From a virus (Duplodnaviria > Caudoviricetes): a DNA stretch of 64,000 bases. The translations under genes were made by a program, and so were the position numbers. The notes below the pieces were generated by a model. The model did no database searches, was not told the origin of the DNA, and saw only the letters and a list, made by a program, of their open reading frames with translations. Below, piece after piece: positions 6,675 through 9,702 of this stretch (within the stretch, counting starts at the first letter, position 1; each line of letters begins with the position of its first letter). The stretch spans positions 1 to 64,000 of IMG/VR virus record IMGVR_UViG_3300005440_000009. One strand, written 5' to 3'.

Positions 6675-7088
6675 TTAGTTCGGGGGCGCGGGAGTCGCGG
6701 TCTCTGGCTTCGGACTTTCGATCGGCTCGTCGTTTTGGACGATGACGATCGAAGACGAGGCACGCTTTTGATATTCGGTCGATTCGAGAAAAGCTCGAAC
6801 CGCTGCGCGCATGAAGACGAGAGACACCACAACTCCCACGGTCGACACCAAACCGAGCGCGTAAACCGAGTGGACGACTGAAATCACCGAGACGAACACG
6901 AGCACGCTCACGAAGAAACCGATCAGGGCGGCCGACGTGAAGGCGATCGCAAGCTCGGTGCGTCGCTTCAATTGGCCGTGGCTGAAGGCAGCTCGGAGGC
7001 TTTGCCCCTGCTCATCACGAATCGACTGAAGCCAATTATCCGCTTGATCACCGGGGGCTGTTTTGGCTTGCAGACTGGCGCTTTTCAT
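6675..7088 (-). CDS. two-TM membrane protein (start uncertain)
   Basis: two adjacent hydrophobic stretches IAFTSAALIGFFVSVLVFV / VYALGLVSTVGVVVSLVF. Confidence 0.55.
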   Translation of the reverse strand: MKSASLQAKTAPGDQADNWLQSIRDEQGQSLRAAFSHGQLKRRTELAIAFTSAALIGFFVSVLVFVSVISVVHSVYALGLVSTVGVVVSLVFMRAAVRAFLESTEYQKRASSSIVIVQNDEPIESPKPETATPAPPN

Positions 7089-7119
7089 CGTCGTTCTCAG
7101 AGCTTATGATGCGAGCACC

Positions 7120-8115
7120 ATGTCGGGCAAGCCGCGCGCACTCATCACGGGGATCACTGGGCAAGACGGATTTTACCTCACCCGCCTTTTGCTCGAAAAA
7201 GGCTACGAGGTTCATGGGGTTGTGAGACGGGGGCAAAACCCGGATTTGCCCGTGGGCGTGGGCGTCCATCTTGGGGATCTCACGGACCCGGCTACCATTT
7301 ACCAGGCGATCACCGACTCTGACCCGAGCGAGATTTACAACCTCGGTGCCCAAAGTCACGTCGGCGCGAGCTTCAAAGAAGCGTCGTACACGTTTCGCGC
7401 GACGGCCGAGCCGATCCTTACGATCCTCGAATGCCTCCGCGCGAACGGCGGCGCTGCGCGGGGCGTCCGCGTCTACCAAGCGAGCTCGAGTGAGATGTTC
7501 GGGGATGCGCCGGCGCCGCAAAACGAAAACTCGCCCTTCCGTCCGCAAAGTCCGTATGCGGTCGCGAAGGTCGCCGCGCATCACACCGTCAGTCTCTATC
7601 GCAAGGCGTACGGCCTGTTTGTGGTGGGCGGGATCTTGTTCAATCACGAGGGGCCGCGGCGGCCCCCGAGTTTCGTCACGCGCAAGATCACGCGCGGGGT
7701 CGCGCGGATTTTCTCAGGGAACGACGACTCCCTTACCTTGGGCAATCTCGATGCCTGTCGGGACTGGGGCTTTGCGGGCGACTACGTCAAAGCCATGTGG
7801 CTCATGCTCCAGCAGGACGTGCCGAAGGACTACATCGTGGCCACGGGCAATACGCATTCGGTGCGCGACTTCGTGATCGCCGCCTTCGATCACGCCAACC
7901 GGCTCACCGGCAGAAATCTCCAGTGGGAGATGTTCGTGAAGACGAGCGCCGACCTCCAACGTCCCTCGGAGGTGCCGCATTTGCTCGGCAACGCCAGCCG
8001 CACATGCCAAGAGCTCGGCTGGGCGCCGGAGGTCAATTTCGACGGCTTGGTCCGGATGATGGTCGAAGCGGATCTCGAAGACCACGGCGTCGCGTTGATC
8101 CGCGCGACCGGTTGA
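7120..8115 (+). CDS. gmd: GDP-mannose 4,6-dehydratase
   Basis: ALITGITGQDGFYL, YNLGAQSHV, YQASSSEMFG, SPYAVAK, FNHEGPRR, FVTRKIT, LGNLDACRDWG; ATG at 7120. Confidence 0.95.
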   Translation: MSGKPRALITGITGQDGFYLTRLLLEKGYEVHGVVRRGQNPDLPVGVGVHLGDLTDPATIYQAITDSDPSEIYNLGAQSHVGASFKEASYTFRATAEPILTILECLRANGGAARGVRVYQASSSEMFGDAPAPQNENSPFRPQSPYAVAKVAAHHTVSLYRKAYGLFVVGGILFNHEGPRRPPSFVTRKITRGVARIFSGNDDSLTLGNLDACRDWGFAGDYVKAMWLMLQQDVPKDYIVATGNTHSVRDFVIAAFDHANRLTGRNLQWEMFVKTSADLQRPSEVPHLLGNASRTCQELGWAPEVNFDGLVRMMVEADLEDHGVALIRATG

Positions 8116-8147
8116 CATCTTGTAGCAAGATGTTACATCTTGCTACA
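8112..8147 (+). promoter_or_regulatory. promoter overlapped by palindromic operator
   Basis: TTGACA at 8112-8117; perfect inverted repeat TGTAGCAAGATGT-T-ACATCTTGCTACA at 8121-8147 ending on the A of ATG; third ACATCTTG at 8115-8122. Confidence 0.75.
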
Positions 8148-8818
8148 TGGTGAAACTCTCGCATTCTTGGACCCATCAAGACATTCAACGCGTCTCGGCG
8201 GAGAGCCTGGTCGATACGCGGACGATCGAGCGGGCGCTGCGCGGCGATCCAATTCGACCGGGAAGCCGCACGCGCATCGTTGCCGCGGCGCGCGTCCTTC
8301 GTCTCAAGCTTCCGGCCGTGCTTTTGGCCGCTCTCTTGGCGTTCGGGTGCTCGCTCGATTCCGAGAGCTCGCGGCTTTTCGGGAGCGGTGGCGCCGCGGG
8401 CGCGGCGGTCGATAGCGCGGCCGGCGGCGTGTCGCTCGGGGGCGGCGCGGGCGCGGGCGGGAGCGCCGGGAGCATCAATACGGGAGGCGTTAGTGGCAGT
8501 CCGCCCGTGGATTCCGGGACAACGACGTGCAGCGACGGAGAAAAGCGACCGTGCGCCTGCATCGGGATCGAGGGCTCGGAGCGTTGCACCGGCGGCACTT
8601 GGGAAGTGTGCAAGGAAGTGCTCGGCGGGCTCTGTTGCAGTCAGCCCGGGGAATGGCTCGGCTGCTGGGGAAGCGGGTGTCTGGTTTGCCAACAGGATAT
8701 CGCAGGCTTTCCCCATTACATGGAGCACCACCCCGCTTGCGCGATCACCGATTGCGCGCCATCGGCGCGCGGCGCGTGTAACTCGGCTTGCCCCATGCCG
8801 ACGGCGGCCGACCAGTGA
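8147..8818 (+). CDS. LacI-like HTH fused to a lipoprotein signal and a Gly/Cys-rich domain
   Basis: IQRVSAESLVDTRTIERALRG..PGSRTRIVAAA; VLLAALLAFG-C lipobox; GGAAG linker; many Cys in the C-terminal half. Confidence 0.65.
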   Translation: MVKLSHSWTHQDIQRVSAESLVDTRTIERALRGDPIRPGSRTRIVAAARVLRLKLPAVLLAALLAFGCSLDSESSRLFGSGGAAGAAVDSAAGGVSLGGGAGAGGSAGSINTGGVSGSPPVDSGTTTCSDGEKRPCACIGIEGSERCTGGTWEVCKEVLGGLCCSQPGEWLGCWGSGCLVCQQDIAGFPHYMEHHPACAITDCAPSARGACNSACPMPTAADQ

Positions 8819-9702
8819 TCTCGTCGATTCGCGTCACCCGCGATTATCCGGTATCGATTGCGGACAACGACGAATGGGCGCTCGGCGCGTGCCGCGGCGA
8901 TGCGGATAACGTCAATTGGGACATGCTCTTTTCCCAAATCTCGCGCGATTGTTTGGTGGTCGACGTTGGCGCGCATCTTGGCACGTTCGCGGTGCGGGCG
9001 GCGGCGCTCGGCGCCATCGTCATCGCGATCGAAGCGGGAAGCTCGAATGTGGAGCACCTTCGGAGGACGGCGCGTCTCAACCCGGATCTACGGCTCGATG
9101 TCATCCACGGCGCGGCCTGGTCGGAATCCGGCAAAGTGCGCTTTCGCGAAGATCGCGCGTACGGAATGATCTCTCGGGAGGGCGGCGAAGAGGTCGAAGC
9201 CGTCACGGTCGACGATGTCGTGGGTCTCTACGATCCGCGCGCGATCCGCAATCCCGACGTTTTCATCAAAATCGATGTCGAAGGCTCCGAGCCTCAGGTG
9301 CTCCGCGGCATGAAGCGCCTCCTTGGCGCCAACTCCAATCCTCCGGTGGTTTTTTACGAAAGCAATTCACATACGCTCGCGCTCCAGGGCTCGGACATTC
9401 GCGAACCCCGGCGGATTCTCGCGGAGAGCGGCTACGTCAGCTTCTTGATCCACGAGGGCTTGCTCTATCGCCTCGGTCCGGAAGACTCACAGCCGACGGT
9501 TTACACCGACGTGATTGCTCTCAGGCGGGAGTCAGACATGGGCGACATTGCCGGAATGCCGCTTGCGCTCTTTCAATCGGCAATGCTTGCCGGTCCGACG
9601 CGGCTACCGATTCCCGATGAAGGCAAGGCGCACGTCCGGCGGGAGCTTCTCCGGCGGCCGGATCTCGCTAGCCCCGAGCTTCTCCATTTGATCGGCGAAT
9701 GA
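8815..9702 (+). CDS. FkbM-family methyltransferase
   Basis: VVDVGAHLGTF, VIAIEA, FIKIDVEGSEPQVLRG; GTG at 8815 overlaps the upstream TGA. Confidence 0.85.
   Translation: MISSIRVTRDYPVSIADNDEWALGACRGDADNVNWDMLFSQISRDCLVVDVGAHLGTFAVRAAALGAIVIAIEAGSSNVEHLRRTARLNPDLRLDVIHGAAWSESGKVRFREDRAYGMISREGGEEVEAVTVDDVVGLYDPRAIRNPDVFIKIDVEGSEPQVLRGMKRLLGANSNPPVVFYESNSHTLALQGSDIREPRRILAESGYVSFLIHEGLLYRLGPEDSQPTVYTDVIALRRESDMGDIAGMPLALFQSAMLAGPTRLPIPDEGKAHVRRELLRRPDLASPELLHLIGE

Follow-up and report, generated by a model that had tools for sequence, protein, structure and literature searches.

Lipoprotein signal peptides are commonly viewed as short, disposable address labels. The enterococcal and staphylococcal peptide pheromones are cut from lipoprotein signal peptides by signal peptidase II (SPase II) and then by Eep/RseP (PMC10202637, PMC7157817), and the bacteriocin release lipoprotein of pCloDF13 has a signal peptide that is stable and functional, according to the account cited in PMC5727409. 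Long signal peptides with two domains have been described by the 'NtraC' model, in which they combine an N-domain with a targeting C-domain (PMC2447879). Here we describe a gene of a tailed virus (Caudoviricetes), located at positions 8147-8818 (+ strand) of a 64-kb stretch of DNA, in which a predicted DNA-binding helix-turn-helix (HTH) domain is built into the putative signal peptide of a lipoprotein. This stretch, hereafter the window, comprises the first 64 kb of the 77.6-kb IMG/VR virus record IMGVR_UViG_3300005440_000009 (63% G+C; rhizosphere and soil samples). Like the pheromone genes, this gene is predicted to obtain a second functional product from a lipoprotein signal peptide. However, the pheromones are hydrophobic peptides of 7-8 residues that leave the cell and affect others, whereas the product predicted here is a folded, cytoplasmic DNA-binding domain of 55 amino acids. 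The resemblance to the pCloDF13 lipoprotein lies in a signal peptide that is encoded by a mobile element and that is predicted to have a job after cleavage, but the pCloDF13 and NtraC signal peptides, as they are presented in the accounts cited, have no recognisable DNA-binding fold and no matching operator.

Membrane-bound regulators can be released by regulated intramembrane proteolysis, and ToxR and TcpP are RseP substrates (PMC10202637). In these two and in CadC, as in the gene described here, a DNA-binding domain in the cytoplasm is joined by one hydrophobic segment to a Cys-containing domain outside it, and a site-2 protease might release the DNA-binding part. In contrast to this gene, which combines a predicted LacI-headpiece fold with a segment of signal-peptide length that ends in G-C, these regulators feature OmpR-type winged helices and full transmembrane helices without a lipobox. 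The headpieces of the LacI/GalR family (CytR, CcpA, PurR and LacI; PF00356) resemble the HTH domain in their profile match, three-helix fold, and recognition helix T-[VI]-x-R, as well as in a short inverted-repeat target, which is a prediction for this gene. Unlike LacI/GalR proteins, the domain lacks a hinge helix and an effector-binding or dimerising core, belongs to a family of mini-proteins of 50-80 amino acids without a Pfam model, and is followed by the hydrophobic region (h-region) of a signal peptide. Lambda cI, when transcribed from PRM, is a small autoregulated HTH gene with a leaderless mRNA. The strong promoter of C.PvuII, another small HTH protein that regulates its own gene, likewise gives a leaderless mRNA (PMC2175313). 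Common to the controller (C) proteins of restriction-modification systems and the gene described here are a small HTH, repeated boxes that cover the gene's own promoter, and, as predictions in our case, a leaderless mRNA and control over the level or timing of the gene(s) that follow. C proteins, however, are soluble proteins of the XRE type that are encoded apart from the gene downstream, whereas the HTH described here is LacI-type and fused. Each part of the gene has a precedent, but the literature that we searched did not describe a signal peptide, bacterial or phage, that contains a DNA-binding domain.

Results and Discussion

An HTH domain and a lipoprotein are encoded in one reading frame

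The open reading frame (ORF) at 8147-8818, which encodes 223 amino acids plus a stop codon, is the sole sensible long open frame at the locus. Residues 1-55 (8147-8311) comprise a three-helix HTH of the LacI-headpiece type (the HTH proper at residues 9-55), as supported by profile, AlphaFold2 model and structure matches, and are predicted to be cytoplasmic. Residues 56-68 (8312-8350) comprise the h-region PAVLLAALLAFG and the lipobox Cys68 (TGC, 8348-8350), which were assigned by alignment with homologues that are plain lipoproteins. The next segment, residues 69-124 (8351-8518), is a Gly/Ala/Ser linker that starts with SLDSESSRLFGS and is predicted to be disordered, with a predicted local distance difference test (pLDDT) score below 50. 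The remaining residues, 125-223 (8519-8815), form a passenger domain with 14 Cys residues, which contains a small beta module and an 8-Cys module of ~60 amino acids (model pLDDT 86.5). All of these elements lie on the + strand, and they correspond to the HTH, in-frame hydrophobic segment with lipobox, Gly linker and Cys-rich domain that had been proposed from the letters of the window (hereafter the sequence-only reading). The HTH contains no Cys residues, in contrast to the 14 of the passenger, which fits an oxidising environment for the passenger outside and a cytoplasmic location for the HTH inside.

We considered whether an assembly or frameshift artefact has merged two genes, one for a small HTH and one for a lipoprotein, into this ORF. 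Such an artefact was a concern of the sequence-only reading, and the related virus L015 does have the two as separate genes. The junction between the HTH and the lipoprotein is spanned by contigs of four other sequencing runs without an indel, and contigs from independent runs cover 7900-8573, 7963-8413 and 8092-8454, again without indels. In addition, a fused gene that is 95% identical is present in four independent assemblies, JGI, ENA, NCBI and Logan assemblies show the same fused frame and gene order, and six divergent homologues are fused in frame. The artefact reading is effectively refuted.

Codon changes were then compared between viruses. Over the first 90 codons, the window differs from the sister virus L004 by 10 synonymous changes and 1 replacement. 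Relative to the more divergent L003, the N-terminal module has 22 identical codons, 26 with synonymous changes only, and 29 with replacements; for residues 1-55 alone, the corresponding numbers are 15 identical, 18 synonymous-only, and 20 non-synonymous. This pattern shows that translation of the HTH uses this frame and that the domain is maintained by purifying selection. Together with the retention of the arrangement in at least six divergent viral homologues, this result bears out the earlier proposal of a one-gene architecture. Taken together, these sequence comparisons indicate that the HTH-lipoprotein fusion is real, old and modular.

The N-terminal module is a relative of LacI headpieces

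Scans of Pfam, PHROG, NCBIfam and PADLOC with the query by itself returned no significant match, and for this reason assignment of the HTH rested on a profile of its relatives. We searched 1.84 billion representative proteins with a profile built from residues 1-80 and identified 116 relatives at E of 1e-3 or below, nearly all of which are stand-alone proteins of 50-80 amino acids in which the HTH is the entire protein. A profile built from 77 relatives matched, among PDB sequences, the DNA-binding domains of CytR (E 7.6e-5), CcpA (E 4.9e-4) and other LacI-family proteins, and 11 of the 77 reach the Pfam LacI family (PF00356) individually, with a best E of 4.8e-6. AlphaFold2 predicted helices at residues 10-20, 24-31 and 38-50 with pLDDT values of 92-97. 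The structures that matched the model best were the LacI-family headpieces of CelR (Z 6.2; root-mean-square deviation 2.7, 48 residues aligned), CcpA (Z 5.8) and the Lac repressor (Z 5.2), and the top Foldseek rows were LacI-family proteins without exception. The motif R-T-[IV]-x-R, which is invariant among close relatives, aligns with the recognition helix of the LacI family (T-V-S-R in CytR and CcpA). Based on these profiles and models, the HTH is a genuine relative of LacI headpieces, and the description 'LacI-like HTH' in the sequence-only reading holds at the level of the family.

A hinge helix, effector-binding core and dimerisation core are all absent; helix 3 is followed by L-K-L-P and then by the h-region. 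The stand-alone relatives terminate at this same ...L-K-L-P, which is where the h-region starts in the fused form. The absence of a hinge helix and effector core places the module in a headpiece-only mini-family and sets it apart from LacI repressors proper.

The N-termini of the fused proteins, which are MVKLSHSW in the window (8147-8170), MVKLSWS in L003 (1273-1293) and MAKQLWS in L010 (4463-4483), loosely resemble a 'Trp tag' (MALLKW, MALVKW or MKKLRW) that starts ~12 membrane proteins of this virus, encoded at 19.5-36.5 kb. The Trp of the HTH occupies the hydrophobic position ahead of the helix 1 N-cap (V-T in LacI; L, I or W in the mini-HTH family), and the likeness to the tag may therefore be due to chance.

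The hydrophobic segment aligns with lipoprotein signal peptides

In the window, the hydrophobic stretch and lipobox read LPAVLLAALLAFG-C68, which amounts to 12-13 residues that end in A-F-G-C68. Across the fused forms, the uncharged stretch is 10-14 residues long and always ends in x-x-G-C, of which G-C is invariant, with basic residues before the h-region and acidic residues after it. The homologues feature the lipoboxes M-F-G-C, L-F-G-C, V-I-G-C, A-L-G-C and A-S-G-C. By eye, all of these lipoboxes, including that of the window, fit the relaxed PROSITE pattern PS51257, and only V-I-G-C fits the strict pattern [LVI][ASTVI][GAS]C. Two homologues of the passenger, P0002 (LLVAC) and P0004 (LCLAC), carry classical type II signal peptides, and their h-region, Cys and post-Cys linker (N-x-x-LFG-GG-AG) fall into the same alignment columns as those of the fused forms. 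The post-Cys motif is also common to P0003, which is fused, and P0004. The helix that AlphaFold2 predicted within the hydrophobic segment covers only residues 57-65. Together, these alignments indicate that the segment is the h-region of a signal peptide with a lipobox and not a membrane anchor. The n-region of this signal peptide would consist of 55 residues that form a folded domain, in contrast to the few residues of ordinary lipoproteins, for which 5-7 is usual.

Within the linker, D-S-A (window 8388-8398) fits D-[ST]-[AILVMT], which is the O-glycosylation motif of Bacteroidota, and the gene is located in a glycan-synthesis cluster. That the linker is glycosylated would be pure speculation.

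A repeated 8-mer overlaps the predicted promoter of the fused gene

The upstream region begins with a -35-like hexamer, TTGACA (8112-8117, + strand), in which the stop codon of the preceding gene gmd (TGA, 8113-8115) is embedded, and TTGAC(A/T) is found upstream of 6/6 fused homologues. A first half-site, ACATCTTG (8115-8122, + strand), overlaps the hexamer; it is exact in L004 and matches at 7/8 bases in L012, L010 and L003. The upstream alignment further features a core dyad, CAAGATGT-T-ACATCTTG (8126-8142, + strand), which comprises half-sites 2 and 3 (8126-8133 and 8135-8142). The core dyad is identical in the window, L004, L010 and L012, has one mismatch in L009, and is present as a variant in L003. 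In the window, this core is extended into a perfect 13-1-13 inverted repeat, TGTAGCAAGATGT-T-ACATCTTGCTACA (8121-8147, + strand), the last base of which is the A of the ATG start codon. The repeat is unique in the 77.6-kb genome, and no such repeat occurred in 100 shuffles of the window (0/100). The extension is specific to the window: the outer 5 bp of each 13-bp arm are specific to the virus, and the bases that flank the core vary in the alignment. The conserved unit is instead the 8-mer ACATCTTG/CAAGATGT, which is present in three alternating copies that start at 8115, 8126 and 8135 and are separated by gaps of 3 nt and 1 nt. The sequence-only reading was therefore right about TTGACA, a perfect repeat that ends on the start codon, and the lack of a ribosome-binding site, but it took the whole repeat as the unit where conservation points to the triple 8-mer.

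In a relative from run X4, alignment to the window is confined to 8112-8142, which makes this region an island of conservation. L009 has the triple in mirrored order and displaced by one unit with respect to the -35 hexamer and the ATG, such that the last copy contains the start codon. Because the sequence of the 8-mer is kept while its position moves relative to -35 and ATG, a protein-binding site explains it better than a -10 box does. Allowing up to 3 mismatches, we found no further copy of the core in the 77.6-kb genome, which suggests that the only evident viral target is this promoter and leaves a wider viral regulon unsupported.

Reading the same sequence for promoter elements, we noted a candidate extended -10 (TG-t-TACATC; 8131-8139, + strand) that lies 16 nt past the -35 and 7 nt before the ATG. 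By inference only, this spacing would place the transcript start at ~8146-8147 and give a leaderless mRNA. The 20 nt ahead of the ATG contain no purine-rich stretch that would serve as a Shine-Dalgarno sequence. A consensus promoter scanner did not call a promoter upstream of the fused gene, having missed the candidate -10 because its last base is C and not T.

As RNA, the inverted repeat of the window folds at -23.9 kcal/mol (z -5.7), whereas the corresponding region of L003 yields -8.5 kcal/mol (z +1.1). An RNA hairpin as the conserved feature was ruled out, since the L003 region forms no such fold and the outer arms differ between viruses. In the window, such a hairpin might block translation of transcripts that read through from gmd. 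L012 (473-500) contains a fourth near-copy of the 8-mer, CAAGGTGT, within codons 5-8, and base pairing between this copy and the third could span the start codon; the overall RNA fold is -22.5 kcal/mol.

Homologues are mostly fused and differ in their passengers

Five further fused homologues with 45-64% identity in the HTH were identified, and all of them keep the HTH, the short hydrophobic stretch and the G-C. Among these, P0003, P0006, P0007 and P0008 are 52-64% identical in the HTH and fused in frame. Where the contig shows neighbours, the six divergent fused members lie in or adjoin a neighbourhood with gmd or a sugar methyltransferase gene. P0003 keeps the N-terminal module through the Cys and the LDSE..LFGS linker and carries a different Cys-rich passenger. 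A distant form, P0035/P0122, joins the HTH via LKLVLPVAIAAILASG-C (an LASG-C lipobox) to an M10 (matrixin-like) metalloprotease; it is encoded at L013 488-1234, L016 4379-5134 and L017 1272-2027, which are phage-like contigs of many small genes. Upstream of this fusion in L013 and L016, no clear equivalent of the promoter or dyad was found, and the metalloprotease form may represent an independent origin of the HTH-lipobox architecture.

In the related virus L015 (1-2296), the two parts are split. A stand-alone HTH, P0010 (55-225), comes first and is followed by five small genes and then, 1.5 kb downstream of the HTH in the same operon, by the plain lipoprotein P0004 with its own Shine-Dalgarno sequence. 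Upstream of the HTH gene lie TTGACG and, next to the ATG, a 9-4-9 inverted repeat, GTTGCTACA/TGTAGCAAC. This repeat and the outer arms of the window repeat have TGTAGCAA in common, in opposite arrangement. Judged from these gene layouts, the split form suggests how the fusion may have arisen. A search for more fused relatives in IMG/VR, GTDB genomes and JGI metagenomes returned only the sister virus, at 95-99% identity. The sequence-only reading had named a homologue search as a test of the fusion, and the outcome is that homologues are mostly fused, with one split relative, and not always split.

Directly after the fused gene of L003 lies an ORF of 59 amino acids (1880-2059), the product of which features two CxxC-like pairs and a signal peptide of the classical lipoprotein type (MRTLVASVALVAC).

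A model in which lipoprotein processing releases a repressor

Based on these comparisons, one gene probably yields both an exported protein and its own repressor. The reading that we favor, to which we assign a probability of about 0.42, is that the gene is self-repressed and probably leaderless, with a signal peptide that serves as the repressor once SPase II has split it from the lipoprotein. Transcription would start from the gene's own TTGACA promoter and, judging from the spacing and the absent Shine-Dalgarno sequence, would probably give an mRNA with no leader or nearly none. With its N-terminus inside, the chain would be delivered to Sec by the basic residues that end the HTH (R49, R52 and K54) and by the h-region of 12-13 residues. 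Lgt would lipidate Cys68 and LspA would cut before it, as is suggested by the sequence and the plain-lipoprotein homologues, and the mature Cys-rich lipoprotein would remain on the outward-facing side of the membrane. The leader of 67 amino acids would stay cytoplasmic. A signal-peptide peptidase or site-2 protease of the host would probably remove its hydrophobic tail, which would make it the equal of a normal stand-alone member of the family. A search of the virus found no gene for LspA or an M50 protease, which suggests that processing would fall to host enzymes. Conservation of the site suggests that the HTH would bind the three alternating 8-mers over the -35, spacer and -10 and thereby shut off its own promoter. 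The predicted outcome is one repressor for each exported lipoprotein, such that expression of the fused gene and the methyltransferase gene that follows it would be self-limiting. The more specific proposal that a cleavable lipoprotein signal peptide is a transcription factor is tentative and somewhat less probable than the general reading. In this proposal, SPase II would turn one translation product into two, a lipoprotein that is exported and a cytoplasmic LacI-headpiece repressor that acts on their shared promoter, and the cell or virus would thereby count exported molecules one for one.

Several points weigh against release of a repressor by processing. Its DNA binding, lipidation and cleavage, leader fate, and leaderless transcription are all inferred, and no RNA run is among the runs that hold the locus. 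The lipobox is atypical at -3 and -2, with A-F in place of L-A/S, and a folded n-region of 55 amino acids is far beyond that of normal signal peptides. At the promoter, the candidate -10 (TACATC) is poor, and the spacing from -35 to dyad is variable, as seen in L009. Isolated LacI headpieces that lack a hinge helix or dimerisation core are weak DNA binders, and cleaved signal peptides are usually degraded fast. Furthermore, pointers to the host conflict, with the binning of a sister virus in a Gemmatimonadaceae metagenome-assembled genome (MAG) set against the Myxococcota relatives of the passenger.

The rapid breakdown of cleaved signal peptides fits an alternative in which the HTH is active only in the precursor that is not yet exported or cleaved. 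Saturation of export or of LspA would then lead the precursor to bind the operator, and the cleaved leader would be degraded, which would make the gene a sensor of export backlog. This alternative draws on the same architecture and operator, and accumulated preproteins can signal secretion stress (PMC5727409). However, the clipped leader closely matches stand-alone members of the family, which fits a released product somewhat better, and we consider the backlog sensor unlikely. Somewhat more doubtful is an uncleaved, membrane-tethered regulator of the ToxR/CadC/TcpP kind, in which the hydrophobic segment is an anchor that holds the HTH at the membrane with a Cys-rich sensor outside. An N-terminal DNA-binding domain, one hydrophobic segment and an extracytoplasmic domain with Cys residues make up such a layout, which is shared by ToxR and TcpP, both RseP substrates (PMC10202637). 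Segments of 10-14 residues are nevertheless too short for a stable transmembrane helix, which takes ~18-20 or more residues, and the invariant G-C aligns with the lipobox of the plain-lipoprotein homologues. The passenger is found elsewhere behind ordinary type II signal peptides, and the Cys is followed by a disordered linker of 55 residues, which is also at odds with a tethered sensor.

Both of these alternatives keep the HTH as a regulator of its own promoter. It is also conceivable, though slightly less probable again, that the HTH does not regulate this promoter and that the repeat is a promoter element or an RNA hairpin that hides the AUG in transcripts reading through from gmd. The HTH might then contact a protein, tether viral DNA to a viral membrane, or bind a host target. 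The strong hairpin of the window, which buries the A of the AUG, and the N-terminus MVKLSHSW, with its loose likeness to the 'Trp tag' of virion proteins, are consistent with this reading. On the other hand, the hairpin is not conserved in L003 and its outer arms vary, the three alternating 8-mers are kept even when shifted relative to promoter and ATG, and the Trp falls at the hydrophobic position before the helix 1 N-cap. We regard as very improbable that one frame gives two products, the full-length protein and a lipoprotein from an internal start at GTG (V58) or TTG (L60). Such codons do occur within the h-region, and in P0007 an ATG lies where the h-region begins, but a signal peptide made in this way would be without a charged n-region, and the codons are not conserved in position. 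The sequence-only reading had recognized that an internal start would undermine it; between codons 2 and 58 there is no ATG, GTG or TTG, and no Shine-Dalgarno sequence precedes the h-region.

We know of no earlier prokaryotic or phage signal peptide that acts as a transcription factor, and if processing frees the HTH as we propose, this signal peptide would be the first. Here, a whole DNA-binding domain is built into a lipoprotein signal peptide, is maintained by selection in a lineage of viruses, and is paired with a conserved site at the promoter of its gene. If true, the proposed model would represent a very simple coupling of gene expression to protein export, would extend both the active peptides made from lipoprotein signal peptides and the membrane regulators released by proteolysis, and could serve in protein engineering as a compact module for secretion that limits itself. 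The presence of at least three unrelated passengers on one design suggests a portable 'self-limiting export cassette'. The analysis also defines two unnamed families, one of mini-proteins that consist of a LacI-type headpiece alone and one of an extracellular module with 8 Cys residues that is found in soil bacteria.

The passenger resembles an extracellular binding module

A word-indexed search with residues 124-223 found only P0001 and P0002, the ESM Atlas returned only weak leads for the passenger (score 0.80), and a passenger profile had no match among PDB sequences. Foldseek and VIA-align comparisons of the passenger model gave fibronectin type I modules with Z of 2.7 or less, which is uninformative. 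The C-terminal module of ~60 amino acids (residues 172-223; window 8660-8815) features 8 Cys residues in the pattern W-x-GC-x3-GC-x-VC ... Y-x3-HP-x-C ... C-x3-CP-x-P-x3-D. This module has neither a Pfam model nor a fold match; it is present in P0005 and P0123-P0143 and forms tandem repeats in hypothetical proteins that include Polyangia and Myxococcales MAG proteins, such as a Polyangia protein of 1348 amino acids with many copies. It is also found on reprolysin-like metalloproteases, FG-GAP/VCBS proteins and a caspase-like protein, most of them from metagenome contigs. Where they are named, the soil bacteria that carry the module on secreted enzymes are Myxococcota. Judging from this distribution, the passenger looks like an extracellular binding module. 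The suggestion in the sequence-only reading that it is an exclusion factor found no backing, in that neither PADLOC nor PHROG had a match for the passenger; phage superinfection-exclusion lipoproteins (Llp and Cor) and defence proteins are diverse families, and this negative is weak.

Neighboring genes and host

The fused gene and its neighbors belong to a viral glycan-synthesis cluster. The gene adjoining it on the 5' side, gmd (7120-8115, + strand), encodes a GDP-mannose 4,6-dehydratase (PF16363, E 5.8e-107). It is located directly 5' of the fused gene on the same strand in L004-L007, L010 and L011 and close by in L003 and L009. On the other side, a gene for an FkbM-type methyltransferase (8815-9702, + strand; Pfam PF05050, E 7.5e-15) begins with a GTG that overlaps the stop codon of the fused gene (GTGA), and an identical overlap of 4 nt is present in the gene calls of L004-L007. 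This overlap suggests that the fused gene and methyltransferase gene are probably co-transcribed.

A near-identical genome of the sister virus, L021 (DASRAP010000433.1, 73,663 bp), is filed in a Gemmatimonadaceae MAG; because this contig is as large as the entire virus, the filing is at best a binning hint on the host. Shine-Dalgarno sequences are present ahead of several neighboring genes in the window and ahead of the plain-lipoprotein homologue in L008. The start of gmd, like that of the fused gene, is without one and lies 9 nt past a promoter-like TTTTCA-17-TATGAT (window 7082-7122), and operon-first genes of this virus may in general have mRNAs that are leaderless or have very short leaders.

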